A DNA stretch of 64,000 nucleotides. Origin: Shigella phage ESh15. Location: the sequence record ON528725; one strand, given 5' to 3'. The notes under the pieces were generated by a model, which was not told the DNA's origin, searched no databases, and saw only the letters and a program-made list of their open reading frames with translations. Positions 6,413 through 50,553 of this stretch are shown one piece after another. How positions within the stretch are numbered: the stretch's first letter is position 1; each line of letters opens with the position of its first letter. The position numbers and the translations under genes were made by a program.

Positions 6413-6742
6413 TTATACTCTAGGCTTTTGAGCTTGTTTGGTATTGGATTCCCACGCTGCTTTAGTAATTTTGTTAGCGGCATAGCCAAAGGCATTAGAT
6501 AGAACACCTTTAGAGTTGAATACATCCAATCCAATAAGTACACCGGCTGCGTTAAATTTAGGAGCAAAGTATGCATTAGTTTTAGAAAGAGCTTTTTTCA
6601 ATTCAGGGTCTTGAACCAAGCCATCAAAAACGCCTTTACCATTTACTTTATATGTTACTTTAGGATTTTTACCTTCTTCGATAGCAGCTTTCTGTTCCGC
6701 AGATAATGTAACTTCAGTGATAAATTCTTGATACGTTTTCAT
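6413..6742 (-). CDS. internal-protein (IP) candidate with capsid-targeting sequence
   Basis: 109 aa; N-terminus MKTYQEFITE matches the T4 IP capsid-targeting sequence; basic. Confidence 0.65.
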   Translation of the reverse strand: MKTYQEFITEVTLSAEQKAAIEEGKNPKVTYKVNGKGVFDGLVQDPELKKALSKTNAYFAPKFNAAGVLIGLDVFNSKGVLSNAFGYAANKITKAAWESNTKQAQKPRV

Positions 6743-6783
6743 ATGTTTCCTTTAAATGTAAATAGGCCTAAGTATAGGCCTTA

Positions 6784-7362
6784 TTAATTACCACGGGCCG
6801 CATTAGCGACGGCGTAAGCGTACTGAACATTAGCGTCTTTAAACGTACCTTTAGATGTATCTATTTCTGCCTTAAAGCCACCTTTAGCCATAACATCGGC
6901 AAATTCTTTACGGAAAGCCATTGCATCAAGACCTTTCCATGATGATTTATGCTTGGCAAATTCAAGACCAGCGTAGTTGACAGCTTTAGCTAATTTATTA
7001 TCAATAACCCATTTACCGGCTTTAGGCACAAACTTCGGGCCTTTTTGTTTAGAGAACAGTTTTAAATTCCAGCGACGAAGGTCACTGTCGGCTTTAACAA
7101 AAGCTGCGTCTAAGTTACTAGCAACAACATCTTCAATATGAGCAAATTTAAGTCCGTCAACTTCAATATTTAGATCGTTACGCCAGCGTAGTCCTTCCCA
7201 AGCGAAGGCTTTAAAATCAGAAGCCTTTGTAGCTAAGTACCGTTCAATAGGAGCTGTTTTAGGGTCAAAGCCGTTTCCGCCACGATAATTCCACTCGTCC
7301 TTATTAATGCCTTGAGCTTTTCCTGCAAAGGCCTCGGCGATAAATTCTTTATATGTTTTCAT
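6784..7362 (-). CDS. internal-protein (IP) candidate with capsid-targeting sequence (IPIII-sized)
   Basis: 192 aa; N-terminus MKTYKEFIAE. Confidence 0.65.
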   Translation of the reverse strand: MKTYKEFIAEAFAGKAQGINKDEWNYRGGNGFDPKTAPIERYLATKASDFKAFAWEGLRWRNDLNIEVDGLKFAHIEDVVASNLDAAFVKADSDLRRWNLKLFSKQKGPKFVPKAGKWVIDNKLAKAVNYAGLEFAKHKSSWKGLDAMAFRKEFADVMAKGGFKAEIDTSKGTFKDANVQYAYAVANAARGN

Positions 7363-7388
7363 TTTTGTTCCTATTCTTTTAATTTATG

Positions 7389-7703
7389 TTATTCTTTAGG
7401 GAAGTTTTTAGAGTATGCGTCATAAAGTTTATTACCGATGCGACGGAAGACTTTAGCTGCAAAACGGTTTTCAGGGTTTTTAATCATGATTTGCATCATG
7501 TAAGTTCCTGCATCCGAAAGAGCTTCTTCATAGTACCCGTTAATTTCTTTAAGAGTCCTACGTTTACCACCAGGACCATCAACAGTAATTTTCCATTTAC
7601 CTGTAGAAGTGCGGCTCGGTGGCTCAACTTGTTCAATCCAAATATAACCACCTTCAACGCGTTGGTTGGCGGATTCTGCAATAAATTCTTTATACGTTTT
7701 CAT
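7389..7703 (-). CDS. internal-protein (IP) candidate with capsid-targeting sequence
   Basis: 104 aa; N-terminus MKTYKEFIAE; early promoter cassette immediately upstream. Confidence 0.65.
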   Translation of the reverse strand: MKTYKEFIAESANQRVEGGYIWIEQVEPPSRTSTGKWKITVDGPGGKRRTLKEINGYYEEALSDAGTYMMQIMIKNPENRFAAKVFRRIGNKLYDAYSKNFPKE

Positions 7704-7733
7704 TTTTGTTTCCTTGTTTGTTTTGATAGAGTA

Positions 7734-7763
7734 ATTATACCATATTAATACTTAAGCGTAAAC
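7734..7763 (-). promoter_or_regulatory. early promoter (-35 GTTTAC, -10 TATAAT)
   Basis: gtaaac 7758-7763; plus attata 7734-7739 gives minus TATAAT. Confidence 0.55.
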
Positions 7764-7766
7764 AAT

Positions 7767-8027
7767 TTAAGCTTTACCGCCAGAAATAATTCCGAAGTTG
7801 TTAAAATCGTATCCAATATCGTCAACATCTACTTTAGGACTTGCTACAACATAAGCAATTTCACTACGTTTTGCATAGGTGTTGATTTCTTTACCATCGC
7901 CACCTAAGAAAGAATACCCATTACGTTTTAATGAGCCAAAGTCTTCCTCATCACCAATGAAAGCTTTAACTTTAAATTTTGGGTCTTTGGCATCTGCTTC
8001 AGTGATAAATTCTTGATACATTTTCAT
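7767..8027 (-). CDS. internal-protein (IP) candidate with capsid-targeting sequence
   Basis: 86 aa; N-terminus MKMYQEFITE; AAGGA SD. Confidence 0.6.
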   Translation of the reverse strand: MKMYQEFITEADAKDPKFKVKAFIGDEEDFGSLKRNGYSFLGGDGKEINTYAKRSEIAYVVASPKVDVDDIGYDFNNFGIISGGKA

Positions 8028-8033
8028 TTTTCC

Positions 8034-8447
8034 TTAGTAAATTGATTTACCATAGTATTTGTACCAAGTCGGACGTTGAGCAATTTTTTCATCTAAGCGT
8101 GCTTGACTTATCGCAATGGACGCTTCGGACGGGACATAATTATTACGAAATTCGGCAGGGATGTCGGAAATATCCTGGACAGTCGTGTCCTTGATTTTGA
8201 AACCACGTTTCAAACATTCAGCGATTAGCTCGATTTGGCGTAAACGTAAAAATTCGAGTTTGTCGTAAAAGAATGTTACGTGACCCTTGCCTAAGATAAA
8301 TGTTGGAGAGATTTTAAAATCCTTTACACGTTTACCGTTTTGAACATGTTTACGGACTGCACCAAATACGCGTGGTAATTCACGATACTCAGCCATAAGA
8401 TGTTGGTCGGTCAGTTCAGAAACAAGTGTTAAATTGATACGAGTCAT
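8034..8447 (-). CDS. denV: endonuclease V (pyrimidine-dimer DNA glycosylase)
   Basis: 138 aa from ATG at 8445-8447 (GGAGGA SD); [12 protein letters not shown]...AEYRELPR...WYKYYGK match T4 DenV as recalled. Confidence 0.9.
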
Positions 8448-8472
8448 AATTTCCTCCAAGTAGTTGATGAAT

Positions 8473-8504
8473 GTATAGTATCAAAACCCTTGGAGGAAGT
8501 AAAC
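8473..8504 (-). promoter_or_regulatory. early promoter cassette upstream of denV
   Basis: gtaaac 8499-8504; -10 TACTAT; 10-bp inverted repeat ttcctccaag/cttggaggaa pairs the denV SD with the promoter spacer. Confidence 0.6.
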
Positions 8505-8505
8505 A

Positions 8506-8787
8506 CTATTTTTCTGAAGCGCCTGAAATATATTTTTCAAGACGTTGTTTCATCAGCGAGCCGTTCTTAGCGATTTCTTCCGGTTTATCGCACATACGCA
8601 ACAACGCTTCAAGCTTAACGATATCACTGGTGCGCTCAAATTTGCGAGTATCTATCTTACTGGCAAGTTCAGAAATACGTGCTAATAGACTTTCAGCTTC
8701 GACCAAAGCTGCACCTAGCTTAGTTGCAAATGTGTCAGTAGCTTCGTTAAGAATAGATTCTGATAAAAATTCACTATATGTTTTCAT
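8506..8787 (-). CDS. internal-protein (IP) candidate with capsid-targeting sequence
   Basis: 93 aa from ATG 8785-8787 (ATGA overlap with e stop); N-terminus [10 protein letters not shown]; sits between e and denV where T4 has ipIII/ipII. Confidence 0.65.
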
Positions 8788-16321: not shown

Positions 16322-16942
16322 TTACTTACGAGTTTTTGCATACTGAGCAGCGTCAGCAGCCAAACGACCTGCCTGACGAAGTTTTTCTTTAATCTCATCA
16401 TGAAGTGGTTGAGTATACTTCAAACCTTCGATAGTCAAATAAAGACGATAAAGGTCTGGGGTATCAAGGTTGTTGATATGTTGGCCATTACGAAGAATAT
16501 TAAATTCACGAACGAGTGAAGATGTATCGGATTCAATATCACGAACAAGCGAAGATAGTTGTTTATATTTTTTTTCCAGGCTAGAAGTATCAAACTTAAG
16601 AGCAGGAGCTTTAGGAGTTGCTTTTACTTCCGGCTTAGGCTCAGGTTTTGCTTTAGGGGTCGTAGGTTTAGGAATGGTAGGAGCAGGTTTTACTTTAGGC
16701 GAACCAGATTTAGCAGAAACACCACCACTAACAATATCTTTGAATGCTTTAGAAGCTCTGTAATATTCTTTTTGGCTGGAAGTGTCGATACCGTACATGG
16801 CTTGAACGTTTTTGAAAAACTCTGTACTAGTTTTTGTACCAGAAATAGCATCGTAAGCAGCTTGCCATTTCTCTTTTGTCATACGTACACCGGCTTCGGT
16901 GATTACTTCCGTTTCGGCTAAAAATTCATTAAAAGTATACAT
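16322..16942 (-). CDS. IP-like protein with capsid-targeting-like N-terminus and Pro/Lys-rich linker
   Basis: 206 aa; N-terminus MYTFNEFLAE; central KPAPTIPKPTTPKAKPEPKPEVKATPKAP low-complexity linker. Confidence 0.55.
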   Translation of the reverse strand: MYTFNEFLAETEVITEAGVRMTKEKWQAAYDAISGTKTSTEFFKNVQAMYGIDTSSQKEYYRASKAFKDIVSGGVSAKSGSPKVKPAPTIPKPTTPKAKPEPKPEVKATPKAPALKFDTSSLEKKYKQLSSLVRDIESDTSSLVREFNILRNGQHINNLDTPDLYRLYLTIEGLKYTQPLHDEIKEKLRQAGRLAADAAQYAKTRK

Positions 16943-16987
16943 TGATGGTCCTTAGAAAGTAGGTTTATTGTTTACTATATTTATACA

Positions 16988-17923: not shown

Positions 17924-18431
17924 AATCAATCATTTTAACAGTCGGCAAAACAATTTCTTCTTCAATATAAGCGAATTCAACACGTTCAACTACACGCAAG
18001 AAATCGTAATCATAGTATTCAGAAGCATAGCCAAGAATATCAATAAGTCCTTGAGATATCTCATCGCCTTTCACAAAGAACAGGTCGAATACGCGGGCTT
18101 CGTCTTCTTCAGATTTATCACCAAGGTCTACTTCGATACCAAAGACCTTTTTAATAAATTCCGGTTGGAGTTGGTCTGAGAACAGTCCTTCAACCAAGTA
18201 TTCATAGATTAAAAGCGAGCAATCACTGAATGGTGTATTGCCACAGTAACGTTCAGCTTTAGTGCTGGAATGTCGGCTCTTAAATTTCTTCAAGAGGTAT
18301 TTGAACTGTTGGAGCTCATGCTCTCCCACTTCAAACAATGTTTTGGTTTTATAGTTGTCACCATCATTTTCATAGGTAGTGACATCAATTACGTAGCCCT
18401 TAGGAATTGTACTGCCTAAACAAATATTCAT
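17916..18431 (-). CDS. hypothetical acidic protein (171 aa)
   Basis: ATG 18429-18431. Confidence 0.5.
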   Translation of the reverse strand: MNICLGSTIPKGYVIDVTTYENDGDNYKTKTLFEVGEHELQQFKYLLKKFKSRHSSTKAERYCGNTPFSDCSLLIYEYLVEGLFSDQLQPEFIKKVFGIEVDLGDKSEEDEARVFDLFFVKGDEISQGLIDILGYASEYYDYDFLRVVERVEFAYIEEEIVLPTVKMIDLL

Positions 18432-18435
18432 TTAC

Positions 18436-18726
18436 TCACCGTACCATATTAATGTAATTATATTCAATGCAACGTAATTTCAAAGGATTCTTGAAAATAT
18501 CATATTCAAGAGGGCCTTTTTCTGTTTCAATAAAGAAATCAAAGTTCACACTATTAAATTTGCGGTCTTCCCAAAGTAATTTAACTTGCGAAGATGAACG
18601 GTCGATATAAACCTTTTCAACCTCAAAGTTAGTCAGAATACCGTAGTCATCGACTAGTGCTTTAGCTGCACGTTGATCGCTTTCATATCCATTCTCAACG
18701 GATTTTACCTTAGCATAAAGAATCAT
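18436..18726 (-). CDS. hypothetical protein (96 aa)
   Basis: ATG 18724-18726. Confidence 0.45.
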   Translation of the reverse strand: MILYAKVKSVENGYESDQRAAKALVDDYGILTNFEVEKVYIDRSSSQVKLLWEDRKFNSVNFDFFIETEKGPLEYDIFKNPLKLRCIEYNYINMVR

Positions 18727-19085
18727 GAGTGTTCCACCATTTCAAAGGTATGAGCATCAACAATATGATACCAGTCAAAATTTTCTTCTGCTTTTTTATA
18801 AATTTCGCGAAGAGCCTCAACAGTTTTTCCTGTAGCAACAAGGTCGTTAATACCGCCAAGAGGATAACAGTCGTAACCGGCAAACAGAAGGAAATTAATA
18901 GTTTCTGTAGGGGCCGGATGCAGTGTACCATTGTCATCGACTACTTCAAAGAACATATAACCAGGCGATTTAGATTTAATCCAAGCCCATGCTTGAGCTG
19001 CTGAATCAAATGGTCTGCGTATCAAACGACAATCAGGGTCTTTAGAAGGATTTGCTTCAAAATCCGCATATACATGATATTTCAT
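18723..19085 (-). CDS. hypothetical protein (~120 aa)
   Basis: ATG 19083-19085 with AAGGTGA SD (track start at 19103 is TTG). Confidence 0.45.
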   Translation of the reverse strand: MKYHVYADFEANPSKDPDCRLIRRPFDSAAQAWAWIKSKSPGYMFFEVVDDNGTLHPAPTETINFLLFAGYDCYPLGGINDLVATGKTVEALREIYKKAEENFDWYHIVDAHTFEMVEHS

Positions 19086-19086
19086 T

Positions 19087-19272
19087 TTACTCACCTTTTG
19101 CAATTTTATCCATAACGATAGCGATTAAGCCGATTAGAAATGCTACTACCAATGAGATAGAATTTTCTGTTGTTGTCAGTAGTCCACAAATGAATCCTAC
19201 AAACATCGAAAAACTAAAAGCCATTGAAGCAATTACTACAGCAACATTACGAATCAGTTCAGCGCGTTTCAT
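19087..19272 (-). CDS. hypothetical small membrane protein (61 aa)
   Basis: single TM helix; ATG 19270-19272 with GAGGAG SD. Confidence 0.4.
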   Translation of the reverse strand: MKRAELIRNVAVVIASMAFSFSMFVGFICGLLTTTENSISLVVAFLIGLIAIVMDKIAKGE

Positions 19273-19298
19273 TTTATTCTCCTCAGTAGTTGATAGGG

Positions 19299-19330
19299 TA
19301 ATAGTATCACTACCCTATCTAAAAGTAAAC
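19299..19330 (-). promoter_or_regulatory. early promoter cassette
   Basis: gtaaac 19325-19330; -10 TACTAT; 9-bp inverted repeat gatagggta/taccctatc with compensatory changes relative to other copies. Confidence 0.6.
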
Positions 19331-19341
19331 GGTTTTATAAA

Positions 19342-19650
19342 CTATTTTATTCCGCGTGATGCAATCGTATTCTGCCGTTTAACGCCAGTTTGTTTAAAGT
19401 TATGATTGTCGAGTTGATCGGTACGAGCAACTCCGAATGATGATTTAATCTTAGCTTTAGATCCTTTAGTTATAGAAATAAACATCTCGGGAGCCCCTTT
19501 CTTAAAGTCCGAAGCAATTACTTCAACACCGTTCTTAGCAAGTGACCTCAGAATTGCTTCCGCATACTCATCATCAAGACCCGCTTGAGTATGAATAACG
19601 AATGTCTTTGGTGCAGCTGCTTCACAGATAAATTCTTTAAATGTTTTCAT
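19342..19650 (-). CDS. internal-protein (IP) candidate with capsid-targeting sequence
   Basis: 102 aa; N-terminus MKTFKEFICE; basic. Confidence 0.6.
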   Translation of the reverse strand: MKTFKEFICEAAAPKTFVIHTQAGLDDEYAEAILRSLAKNGVEVIASDFKKGAPEMFISITKGSKAKIKSSFGVARTDQLDNHNFKQTGVKRQNTIASRGIK

Positions 19651-19680
19651 TTTATTTTCCTAATTAATTTTGATAGGACT

Positions 19681-19710
19681 ACTATAACATAGTCCTATCA
19701 GCATGTAAAC
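19681..19710 (-). promoter_or_regulatory. early promoter cassette
   Basis: gtaaac 19705-19710; -10 TATAGT; 11-bp inverted repeat. Confidence 0.6.
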
Positions 19711-19713
19711 TAC

Positions 19714-20001
19714 TTACAGAAGAGTTTTTGCAATAATTTTAAGCTGAGCTACAGAAATATGCTTAGCTTTAAACAGTGCAGTCTCTTCAGCTGGAGAGAT
19801 AACAATAGTAGCGCCATCTTTCTTAGCAGACCATCCATCACCTAAGTAAACAGTACCTTTTACTTCTTCGCCGTCAACCAGACTAATCATTGGTTTACCC
19901 TCACGTCCTTTATTTGCTTTAATAACTTCGGAAGTAAGGGTTGCTTCAGTCAGAGTAGAAACGTTAGCAACAGGTGATATAAATTCTTTATAGGTTTTCA
20001 T
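19714..20001 (-). CDS. internal-protein (IP) candidate, ipI-position and IPI-sized
   Basis: 95 aa; N-terminus MKTYKEFISP; adjacent to 57B as ipI is in T4. Confidence 0.6.
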   Translation of the reverse strand: MKTYKEFISPVANVSTLTEATLTSEVIKANKGREGKPMISLVDGEEVKGTVYLGDGWSAKKDGATIVISPAEETALFKAKHISVAQLKIIAKTLL

Positions 20002-20032
20002 TTTATTTCCTTGAGGTCGTTTATTTGATAGG

Positions 20033-20065
20033 ATGATAGTATCACACCGTCATCCTTATGTAAAC
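20033..20065 (-). promoter_or_regulatory. early promoter cassette
   Basis: gtaaac 20060-20065; -10 TACTAT; 7-bp inverted repeat aggatga/tcatcct. Confidence 0.55.
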
Positions 20066-20078
20066 TGTTTTGTGAAAA

Positions 20079-20764
<686 letters not shown>

Positions 20765-20768
20765 TTTA

Positions 20769-21503
20769 TTACCTTAAGATTGTTTCAATTTTAGAATAAA
20801 GCTCTTCTAAAGAGCCGTCGTTTGTAATAACTAAATCGCCTTCTTCAATAGGCAACCCAGCTTCTGTAATATGTTTATCTGTGGATTCCATACCGGAGCG
20901 AACCACATGAATAACTGTAGCACCCATCGCTCTAGCGGTTTCCATTTCATGGACTTGACGTGTATCGGTTACGACATAGTAATCGAAATCACTTCCAATA
21001 TAATCCATATAGTTTAATGCAAAAAGCTTAACCCAATACATACGGTCAAATAAATTAACGACAACATCCGTACCGAGGGCTTGCATAAGACGGCGGATTG
21101 ACCATGTGTCGTTGATATTATTTATAGCTTCACGCAGGGCTTCATATGGTTTAATATCTAGATATGAATATCCACCTTCTAACGATGATAATACTTTAAC
21201 ATTATTAATTGGTAAATATTGACTTTGTAAATAAATTAGCGTTTCTTCCAATAATTCAATAACATCCAACTTATTGAGATTTAATGGTGTTTCACGATCG
21301 TATCCAACACCTTCAAAGTATTCGTATTTCAACTCGGTGAATACATCAGGGTTTTCAGCATGTTTACGACCCCAGGCTATTGCTAGAGCGTCTTTAATCG
21401 GATATGCTAATTGATATTTTACAGATTTAAAGTTTGAATTGATGTAATCAGCAGTAGTGTCTTTACCACTACGTTTGATGCCACTTAAAAAGATTAGCTC
21501 CAT
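20769..21503 (-). CDS. 1: deoxynucleoside monophosphate kinase
   Basis: 244 aa; N-terminus M(E/K)LIFLSG(I/V)KRSGKDT P-loop as in T4 gp1. Confidence 0.9.
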   Translation of the reverse strand: MELIFLSGIKRSGKDTTADYINSNFKSVKYQLAYPIKDALAIAWGRKHAENPDVFTELKYEYFEGVGYDRETPLNLNKLDVIELLEETLIYLQSQYLPINNVKVLSSLEGGYSYLDIKPYEALREAINNINDTWSIRRLMQALGTDVVVNLFDRMYWVKLFALNYMDYIGSDFDYYVVTDTRQVHEMETARAMGATVIHVVRSGMESTDKHITEAGLPIEEGDLVITNDGSLEELYSKIETILR

Positions 21504-21556
21504 AGGTTTTCCTCATATAATTTATGAGCGATTATAACATACGGAGCTAGAAGCGA

Positions 21557-22141
21557 TTAACGCAAGGAAGGGTGTCTAGAAATGGATTTAGATTCGACCG
21601 CTTGACGTGGTTGTTGAGATACAATGACTTCACCATCTTTTTCTATCGTCATATACGCGAAGTGAATAGTTGCTACGCACGTAACGGCAGGGTCAGAGTC
21701 TTCAGTGTAACTAAATTCAATTTCGCTCAAATCGGAAATCCATGGTTTATAGAAATTTGCCGTCAAAACGACTTCTGTCTTATTGTTGTTTAAAATGTGC
21801 AAAGTAACAAACTCAGGACCATCGGCATGGGCCGTATTATGACCTGTTATATAGTTATTAGTGCTGAGCATCCATTTATACATGTTCATCCAGGACGTCA
21901 TGTCTTCATCAACTATAAATCGTACAATAAAAGGGTCATATTCAAATGTAGTGCCTGCACGCATTGCACGTCCTAACCCCATTGTGCCCGTCACAGTTTC
22001 AACAACAGGAATTCTCACACCAGGTAATGGAGCCGTTTGGGCATTGAGCACAAAACCTGAAGTTCGTGTACTATCCGGGATATCCACAACAAAGTTTGTT
22101 ATATTTGTTTGGTTAAAAATCTGTCTCGCTGGACGAGTCAT
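21557..22141 (-). CDS. 3: gp3 tail completion/sheath stabiliser
   Basis: ATG at 22139-22141 after GAGGTG SD (track start is the GTG inside the SD); position between genes 1 and 2. Confidence 0.7.
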   Translation of the reverse strand: MTRPARQIFNQTNITNFVVDIPDSTRTSGFVLNAQTAPLPGVRIPVVETVTGTMGLGRAMRAGTTFEYDPFIVRFIVDEDMTSWMNMYKWMLSTNNYITGHNTAHADGPEFVTLHILNNNKTEVVLTANFYKPWISDLSEIEFSYTEDSDPAVTCVATIHFAYMTIEKDGEVIVSQQPRQAVESKSISRHPSLR

Positions 22142-48641: not shown

Positions 48642-49066
48642 TGTATCTTATCCCTGAATCTTATGAATTGGTACTCGAAAATGTCGAAGCACTTATTCCT
48701 GAAGCACAGGGCCGAATCGATGCATTGTCTTCCGCTCTCGATATTGACGATATAAATACTATTATCGAGAACATGCTTGAAACTGAAACGGATTTAGCTG
48801 TTGCAATGGCTTCCATTATTAATGAAGAACAGTTAAATGAGTTTATCGTTAAACATGTTTCTTCTCGTGGTGAAGTCACCCGCACTAAAGACCGTAAAAC
48901 TCGTGAACGTAACGCGTTCCAAACAACCGGTCTTTCTAAAGCAAAACGTAGACAAATCGCTCGTAAGGTCGTTAAAGCTAAAAAAGCTAACCCTTCAGGC
49001 CAAGTTAAAGGCATGCGTAAGCGTAAAAAAGCTCTTAAACGTCGTAAAGCATTAGGATTAAGCTAA
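48641..49066 (+). CDS. 68: prohead core protein gp68
   Basis: 141 aa, basic C-terminus; synteny. Confidence 0.8.
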
Positions 49067-49707
49067 TGAATAAACCCGAGTTACTTATTGAAACTTGGGG
49101 TCAACCCGGTGAGATTATTGATGGCGTTCCAATGTTGGAATCTCATGATGGAAAAGATTCTGGCTTAAAACCAGGGCTTTATATAGAAGGTATTTTTCTT
49201 CAGGCAGAGGTTGTTAACCGAAATAAACGTTTATATCCTAAACGCGTTTTGGAAAAAGCAGTAAGTGACTATATTAAAGAACAAGTCGCAACCAAACAAG
49301 CCCTTGGAGAATTAAACCATCCACCTCGCGCAAATGTTGACCCTATGCAAGCCGCTATCATTATTGAAGATATGTGGTGGAAAGGAAACGATGTATATGG
49401 ACGCGCTAGAATTATTGAAGGCGACCATGGTCCCGGCGATAAATTAGCTGCTAATATACGAGCTGGTTGGATTCCAGGTGTTTCCTCTCGTGGTCTTGGT
49501 TCTTTAACCGACACCAATAAAGGGTACCGTATCGTGAACGAAGGATTTAAATTAACCGTCGGCGTAGATGCCGTATGGGGACCTTCTGCTCCAGATGCTT
49601 GGGTTACTCCTAAACAAATATCAGAATCAGAAAATTCGGTGGAAATCACCAAAAACAGTGCTGATGAAGCATTTAAAGCTCTCGCAGAGAGTTTAAAAGC
49701 ATTATAA
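49066..49707 (+). CDS. 21: prohead core scaffold and protease gp21
   Basis: 213 aa; synteny 68-21-22. Confidence 0.9.
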   Translation: MNKPELLIETWGQPGEIIDGVPMLESHDGKDSGLKPGLYIEGIFLQAEVVNRNKRLYPKRVLEKAVSDYIKEQVATKQALGELNHPPRANVDPMQAAIIIEDMWWKGNDVYGRARIIEGDHGPGDKLAANIRAGWIPGVSSRGLGSLTDTNKGYRIVNEGFKLTVGVDAVWGPSAPDAWVTPKQISESENSVEITKNSADEAFKALAESLKAL

Positions 49708-49740: not shown

Positions 49741-50553
49741 ATGATCAAAGAACAACTTTTGAAAGAAGCTCAGAATATCGAGACTTCAGTTGCTCTTAAT
49801 AGTGTTTTCGAATCAGTAGAACTGTCTCCGGACGTTAAAGCTAATTTCAGCACTGTATTCGAAGCCACCGTTAAGCAGGAAGCAGTCAAACTAGCTGAAT
49901 CTCATATCAAAGCTATCGCCGAAAAAGCCGAAGAAGAAGTTGAAAAGGCTAAAGAAGATGCTGAAGAGAAAGCTGATAAAAAATTGGCTGAACAAGCTTC
50001 TAAATTCCTGGACCATCTTGCAAAAGAATGGCTCGCAGAAAACCAAATCGCAGTTGATAAAGGCATTAAAGCTGATTTGTTTGAATCCATGCTTGGTGGT
50101 CTGAAAGAACTGTTTGTTGAACATAACGTTGTTGTTCCAGAAGAATCTGTAGATGTTGTAGCAGAAATGGAAGAAGAGCTGGCCGAACATAAAGAAGAAA
50201 CCGCTCGTTTGTTCGAAGAAGTTACCAAACGTGATGCATATATCAATTACGTTCAGCGTGAAACCGCTATTAATGAAAGCGTAAAAGACCTGACTGAATC
50301 TCAGAAAGAAAAAGTTATTGGCCTGGTTGAAGGTATGGATTATTCTGACGCATTTGGTACTAAGTTAACTGCTATTGTAGAAATGGTTAAAGGTTCTACT
50401 AAAGAAGAAGCCGCTATTACCGAAAGTATAAATACAGTTGACAATGACGCTGCCGGTCTTAATTTTGTTGCCGAAGCAGTTGACACTACCACAACTCAGG
50501 TAGAACAGAATTCTAATGTAAGTTTATATGCGAAAGTCGCATCTCGTTTCTAA
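49741..50553 (+). CDS. 22: prohead core scaffold protein gp22
   Basis: 270 aa acidic coiled-coil; synteny. Confidence 0.9.
   Translation: MIKEQLLKEAQNIETSVALNSVFESVELSPDVKANFSTVFEATVKQEAVKLAESHIKAIAEKAEEEVEKAKEDAEEKADKKLAEQASKFLDHLAKEWLAENQIAVDKGIKADLFESMLGGLKELFVEHNVVVPEESVDVVAEMEEELAEHKEETARLFEEVTKRDAYINYVQRETAINESVKDLTESQKEKVIGLVEGMDYSDAFGTKLTAIVEMVKGSTKEEAAITESINTVDNDAAGLNFVAEAVDTTTTQVEQNSNVSLYAKVASRF

Follow-up and report, generated by a model that had tools for sequence, protein, structure and literature searches.

Between gene 57B and the small gene trna.4, in the slot that ipI occupies in bacteriophage T4, Shigella phage ESh15 (sequence record ON528725; the 64,000 nucleotides analysed are called the window here) has two short open reading frames whose products begin MKTFKEFICE and MKTYKEFISP, and the question is whether they encode new injected effectors or internal head proteins that are already known. 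The first-pass annotation took both for internal-protein candidates at the ipI locus and thought that they may be alternative effectors with a different target. Both frames are in the six-frame list of open reading frames, on the minus strand and at exactly the positions first given, 19342-19650 (102 aa) and 19714-20001 (95 aa), and as 283 and 291 phage records respectively contain homologues of them, they are not chance frames. Read by sequence and by analogy with T4, they are very probably the known internal-protein genes ip7 and ipI, arranged as tandem cassettes in an RB69-like phage, with products that would follow the T4 paradigm of capsid-targeting leaders, cleavage by gp21, injection and inhibition of host defence.

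A megablast search with positions 18400-21600 returned 716 phage records, and as the top matches are Mosigvirus (RB69-like) genomes of about 96% identity, SHSML-52-1 and ATK47 among them, the window is assigned to a T-even phage of that genus. The order on the minus strand is 57B, ipI, ip7, trna.4, and the placing of two genes with capsid-targeting sequences (CTS) at the ipI locus is borne out by the same neighbours as in T4. The upstream neighbour 57B (20079-20534, minus strand; 85% amino acid identity to T4 57B) is the anti-CBASS phosphodiesterase Acb1 by its Pfam match (PF23474, E=1.3e-58), and therefore the stretch 57B-ipI-ip7 constitutes a small counter-defence neighbourhood. Downstream, the trna.4 homologue (19087-19272, minus strand; phrog_1692) specifies a predicted membrane protein of 61 aa, 84% identical to T4 Trna.4. 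The portal gp20, protease gp21, scaffold gp22 and capsid protein gp23 are all encoded within the window, the prohead protease at 49066-49707 on the plus strand (Peptidase_S77, PF03420, E=2.9e-107) and, adjoining it, the scaffold gene at 49741-50553 (T4_CASP, E=1.5e-89).

The 95-aa product of 19714-20001 (minus strand; phrog_4363) is the precursor of internal protein I. It matches the Pfam family IPI_T4 (PF11634) over profile positions 1-76 of 76 with E=1.3e-50 and 169.7 bits, the cut-off being 25, and it is 88% identical to T4 IpI (AF158101, 73591-73878) across all 95 residues. Against the solved mature protein IPI* (PDB 2JUB, 76 aa), 72 of the 76 residues are identical, and residue 1 of that chain corresponds to residue 20 of the open reading frame. 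Proteins 100% identical to it are encoded by several deposited Mosigvirus genomes, and gp155 of RB69 is an IPI homologue (PMC13326640). Homology over the full length of the mature domain, a propeptide of 19 residues with a gp21 site, and the position between 57B and trna.4 together place the protein in the IPI_T4 family. A match to the Pfam family DUF7412 fell below threshold, was confined to the leader region and was set aside. The view that the sequences past the leaders are unlike T4 IPI thus survives for 19342-19650 and fails for 19714-20001; the clear full-length homology that was to mark a gene as a known allele is what the latter has, and with it the idea of an alternative effector lapses for this gene.

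The propeptide of IpI, codons 1-19 (19945-20001, minus strand; MKTYKEFISPVANVSTLTE), is CTS-like and ends at a predicted gp21 site, L-T-E|A, which, cut after Glu19, is the sole [LIVF]-x-E|[AGS] site in the protein and is followed by ATLTSE. Propeptides of internal proteins are 10-19 residues long (PMC9026906). In the T4 propeptide, MKTFKEFTSTTTPVSTITE|A, the corresponding site is I-T-E|A. That the gene lacks a glutamate at codon 10 was correctly seen, but the suggestion that its processing may therefore differ does not hold: T4 IpI also lacks Glu10, so its absence is no sign of departure, and in both proteins the cut would come after Glu19 at [I/L]-T-E|A. The two share the length of 95 aa, the position by 57B and trna.4, and the 19-residue propeptide ending in TE|A. 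They differ in four conservative substitutions in the mature part (I28V, A65V, H67Q and N74T in IPI* numbering) and in seven more in the propeptide.

The 102-aa product of 19342-19650 (minus strand) is also a known protein, the precursor of internal protein 7. Its match to phrog_2667, 'internal head protein', runs over positions 1-101 of 101 with E=6e-40, and it is 91% identical to 'internal head protein 7' of T2, 89% to Ip7 of ATK47 and 100% to the homologue of Shigella phage phi25-307. The family is named Ip7 or internal head protein 7 in the annotations of T2, ATK47, Shf125875, WG01 and VR5, 'Ip7 protein' stands among the source names, and the ATK47 annotation refers to RB15 Ip7 (CAA84464), K3 Ip7 and RB69ORF156c. 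The best BFVD match of the window protein is Ip7 of phage MX01. Ip7 was reportedly first described by Repoila et al. in 1994 (EMBO J 13:4181). Full-length homology, a 10-residue CTS ending in I-x-E|A, and a place in an internal-protein locus with promoter and hairpin elements make it a member of the family, and as it shares the short CTS and the flanking elements with Ip7 of the T-even phages and differs in nothing material, it is an allele. Here the idea of an alternative effector fares better, in that the protein is unrelated to IPI past its leader and a different target may well hold, though for a protein that already has a name.

By tblastn, ip7 is found in 283 phage records, among phages of Escherichia, Klebsiella, Enterobacter, Shigella, Salmonella and Citrobacter. 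When 1.84 billion representative proteins were searched exhaustively by profile, two clusters matched Ip7 strongly, and beside them there were only a truncated piece of Ip7 and two distant relatives that carry a CTS, so that the family is confined to T4-like phages; a 764-aa repeat protein returned by the same search is a spurious low-complexity match. A match of Ip7 to the Pfam family AbiJ_NTD3, at 16.1 bits with a cut-off of 32.5, was likewise rejected, and a sequence search of the PDB yielded chance matches only (DARPins, E>=0.03). In Escherichia phage OLB35, whose record is flagged UNVERIFIED, ip7 is annotated as a shortened product of 77 aa (2442-2675 of the compared stretch), the truncated piece of the profile search, which aligns with the family in its C-terminal part alone; this is either a disrupted allele or an artefact of sequencing or annotation.

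The capsid-targeting sequence of Ip7 is codons 1-10, MKTFKEFICE (19621-19650, minus strand), with a predicted gp21 site, I-C-E|A, that is the sole [LIVF]-x-E|[AGS] site in the protein. Experiment has assigned residues 4 and 7 of such leaders to targeting and residues 8 and 10 to processing (PMC9026906). Among 28 Ip7 homologues of 38-95% identity, M1, E6, F7, I8 and E10 are invariant and position 4 is always aromatic (F or Y). Position 9, which is Cys in the window and for which other alleles have Asn, Ala or Thr, would be removed with the propeptide by the predicted cleavage. The mature protein is predicted to have 92 aa, 9.9 kDa and a pI of 9.85, with 15 K+R as against 9 D+E, and its core, residues 14-80, is predicted to be a well-folded globular domain of generic ferredoxin-like fold (pLDDT about 90). 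When Ip7 is compared by profile with another internal protein of the window, likeness stops after a 13-residue leader.

One repeated element, seen as direct-repeat families D1-D3 and in an alignment of its copies, precedes each of ipI, ip7 and trna.4. It is composed of a GTTTAC(A) -35 box, a spacer of 17 nt, a TAnnnT -10 box with TG upstream, an inverted repeat with the -10 box between its arms and a shared ribosome-binding region, after which ipI and ip7 also have their first codons in common; repeat D3 extends about 25 nt into coding sequence at 93% identity. That each gene has its own early-promoter cassette, as first claimed, is therefore confirmed, with TTTACA-17-TACTAT (20064 to 20036) in the element upstream of ipI (20002-20078, minus strand), TTTACA-17-TATAGT (19709 to 19681) in that upstream of ip7 (19651-19713, minus strand), and TG before the -10 box in both. 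The ipI hairpin, at about 20030-20056, has a predicted energy of -13.8 kcal/mol (z=-2.1), and that of ip7, at 19671-19700, has 11-12 bp and -17.7 kcal/mol (z=-4.6), its inverted repeat, I10, being 11 nt long and 100% complementary. The third copy, upstream of trna.4 (19273-19341, minus strand; D1 and D2; GTTTAC at 19330; -16.4 kcal/mol, z=-2.9), closes the ip7 cassette at its distal end.

The stems are AT-rich (GATAGGACTA / TAGTCCTATC), the promoters are of T4 early type, and a scan for terminator-like sites found none at these elements. The PeSL (promoter-early stem-loop) cassettes of RB49- and phi1-type phages resemble them in that a promoter and a hairpin flank each small open reading frame and in the gain or loss of whole cassettes with junctions inside the repeat (PMC2839356, PMC4122927). 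PeSLs in the sense of Arbiol et al. (2010), however, join a sigma-70-like promoter to a GC-rich GGGG...CCCC stem-loop terminator, and the elements of the window do not qualify as such: with T4 early promoters (GTTTAC at -35) and weaker, AT-rich stems devoid of polyG and polyC they are analogues of PeSLs and not homologues (PMC2839356). The promoter and stem-loop elements of internal-protein loci are thought to drive the shuffling of internal proteins (PMC2839356; Comeau et al. 2014, PMC4122927). Accounts of the two genes, of their leaders and promoter cassettes and of cassette shuffling go back to the 1990s. Such cassettes and their shuffling belong to the textbook picture of T-even internal-protein loci, and many GenBank records carry annotations of both genes, an ipI allele and the long-named Ip7.

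The contents of the locus vary by such units. Of the two genes T4 carries just ipI and phi25-307 just ip7, both are present in the window and in ATK47, and T2 has ip7 with a different CTS-bearing frame of 85 aa in place of ipI. When the window, phi25-307 and T4 are aligned, whole units of promoter plus open reading frame are present or absent and the indel junctions lie at the AGTTTACAT box, so that the -35 box GTTTACAT is the point of whole-cassette gain or loss. In the Dhakavirus VR5, ip7 is in the other internal-protein locus, between ip3 and denV on the lysozyme e side (1501-1800 of the compared stretch), in Klebsiella phage phi1_146055 it is just downstream of the endolysin gene (1501-1800), and Salmonella phage PSE-D1, a Jiaodavirus, also has an ip7-family gene (1501-1806); the three proteins are 44-52% identical to Ip7 of the window. 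From its presence in the other locus in VR5 and beside an endolysin gene in phi1_146055, one internal-protein family moves between the two loci, and recombination at the repeated promoter elements would be the means by which cassettes are gained, lost and moved.

IpI is more similar to its T4 counterpart than the flanking gp1 and 57A are to theirs. Over 18436-21503, compared with T4, it has 88% amino acid and 83% nucleotide identity, and 95% amino acid identity in the mature part, while gp1 and 57A have 61% and 55% amino acid identity. The similarity of IpI to that of T4, and of Ip7 to that of T2 (91%), would fit an exchange of cassettes by genera that do not otherwise recombine, or else unusually strong constraint.

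By the T4 model, the leader MKT[YF]KEFI... would dock each precursor on the gp22 scaffolding core of the prohead, and gp21 would cut IpI after Glu19 (LTE|A) and Ip7 after Glu10 (ICE|A), giving products of 76 aa, 8.0 kDa and pI 9.0 in the one case and 92 aa, 9.9 kDa and pI 9.85 in the other. These basic mature proteins would be enclosed with the DNA in hundreds of copies and ejected into the host at infection. T4 IPI* is packaged, is ejected and inhibits the Type IV enzyme GmrSD of E. coli CT596 (PMC9026906, PMC12373910). A literature search for virion proteomics of Ip7 found none.

Directly upstream of ipI and ip7 there are only promoters of early type, even though head proteins are needed late. 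A search for late promoters directly upstream of the two genes found none, the nearest candidate, TATAAATA on the same strand, being at 21119-21126 inside gene 1, 1.1 kb upstream. One or both genes could on this account encode ordinary early cytoplasmic proteins that are never packaged, with the shared N-terminus a by-product of recombination at the promoter and leader repeat, and the reach of repeat D3 into coding sequence means that recombination could carry a leader along. This is very improbable. The residues for targeting (4 and 7) and cleavage (8 and 10) are invariant or conservatively kept among Ip7 homologues down to 38% identity, the solved IPI* starts exactly at residue 20, and some 360 copies of T4 IpI, whose leader and promoter architecture is no different, are packaged (Table 1 of PMC9026906). 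Because T4 ipI has that architecture and is packaged, the early-only promoters are not counted against packaging of the window proteins.

For IpI of the window, the 95% identity of the mature part to T4 points to a protein that would be packaged, ejected and active against GmrSD, where IPI* would inhibit a Type IV restriction enzyme of GmrSD type and so spare the sugar-modified DNA of the phage from being cut. As judged from its genus, the DNA of this phage carries arabinosyl-5-hydroxycytosine (PMC13390438), in contrast to the glucosyl-hmC of T4, and because the modification differs between Mosigvirus and T4, the cognate restriction enzyme of the window IpI may differ too. BrxU, an enzyme of the GmrSD family, cleaves arabinosylated Mosigvirus DNA (PMC13390438), and so an inhibitor of GmrSD enzymes would be useful to this phage.

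The target of Ip7 is the one live question at the locus, and it has already been posed in the literature and attacked experimentally. Each of Ip1, Ip2 and Ip3 blocks a GmrSD variant of its own, with no cross-protection (Silas et al. 2025, PMC12373910), and the same authors proposed GmrSD variants as the targets of every protein encoded at the two Ip loci (PMC12373910). Ip7 is modelled on T4 Ip2 and Ip3, injected inhibitors of GmrSD-ECOR21 and GmrSD-ECOR17 (PMC12373910), which have the CTS leader, the cassettes of an internal-protein locus and the expected delivery in common with it. They differ from Ip7 in being without sequence likeness to it past the leader, and in having demonstrated GmrSD targets. 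By this analogy Ip7 would be another injected, subtype-specific inhibitor of host defence, most likely of a Type IV restriction variant, the best guess being a GmrSD-family variant beyond those tested. Since all three T4 internal proteins have been known from 2025 as subtype-specific GmrSD inhibitors, Ip7, with its 283 phage records, is a reasonable probe for a defence variant.

Part of the evidence pulls away from GmrSD. When ip4-10 were set against 15 GmrSD groups no inhibition was reproducible, and an apparent effect of ip7 on CLS_011 did not repeat (PMC12373910, Supplementary Fig. 9); as the screen was without reproducible interaction, Ip7 is not filed here among the GmrSD-inhibiting Ip proteins. 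GmrSD-ECOR21 and GmrSD-ECOR17 both restrict T2 (PMC12373910) although T2 carries ip7, and neither is therefore likely to be its target. The family also occurs in phages of Klebsiella, Enterobacter, Citrobacter and Salmonella, in several genera with differing DNA modifications, and the adjoining Acb1 is anti-CBASS, so the locus is not exclusively anti-restriction. These points would suit an injected counter-defence protein directed at something other than a GmrSD-type enzyme, such as a different nuclease, a sensor for abortive infection or a housekeeping factor of the host, and this is a possibility of some substance, if clearly the lesser one. It has to be set against the fact that all three internal proteins with known targets act on the GmrSD family, the diversity of GmrSD, which far exceeds 15 tested representatives, and the use in those tests of glucosylated T-even phages and not of Mosigvirus DNA. 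A tentative extension of similar standing is that the defence inhibited by Ip7 lies outside the tested GmrSD groups, as a new class of modification-dependent nuclease, acting on arabinosylated or glucosylated cytosines, or as a non-restriction immune system; if so, its compact ferredoxin-like domain, as modelled, would be a new inhibitor scaffold.

That screens gave no target could also be read to mean that Ip7 has no specific host target and serves mainly a structural or physical role in the head, by neutralising charge, condensing the DNA or helping the core to assemble. Its small size and basic character, with the pI and excess of K+R given above, would fit, and T4 mutants in IPIII assemble their heads more slowly and give a smaller burst (PMC9026906). 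Yet the well-folded prediction for residues 14-80 is not that of a disordered polycation, and genes for internal proteins are dispensable, hypervariable and patchy in distribution, as is typical of arms-race genes and not of structural ones. Ip1-3 were themselves long suspected of being structural and all proved to be specific inhibitors (PMC12373910). A mainly structural Ip7 is accordingly held to be unlikely, and the injected inhibitor of a Type IV restriction variant is preferred, at about even odds.

With ipI and ip7, at least six proteins with capsid-targeting sequences are encoded by the phage. A second internal-protein locus at 6413-8787, on the minus strand, has four more such open reading frames: one of 109 aa at 6413-6742 (phrog_3966), one of 192 aa at 6784-7362 that matches phrog_5341, 'internal virion protein', and is probably IpIII-like by its size, one of 104 aa at 7389-7703 (phrog_3966), and one of 93 aa at 8506-8787 (phrog_3499, 'internal head protein').

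Outside the two classical loci, near tRNA-Arg and tRNA-Met, the product of a 206-aa open reading frame (16322-16942, minus strand) has an N-terminus, MYTFNEFLAETEVITE|AG, that resembles the capsid-targeting leader of an internal protein. It is found in 143 records, and in 15 of 15 among the matches listed it is named 'hypothetical protein'. M1, E6 and F7 are kept across four genera, as is, at residues 14-17, an [I/L]-x-E|A site, and the region upstream, to 17020, has a GC-rich hairpin with a T-run and, at 16978-16985, a conserved T4 late-promoter box, TATAAATA. Judged by these features, it is possible that the product is an unannotated, late-expressed head-packaged protein processed by gp21.
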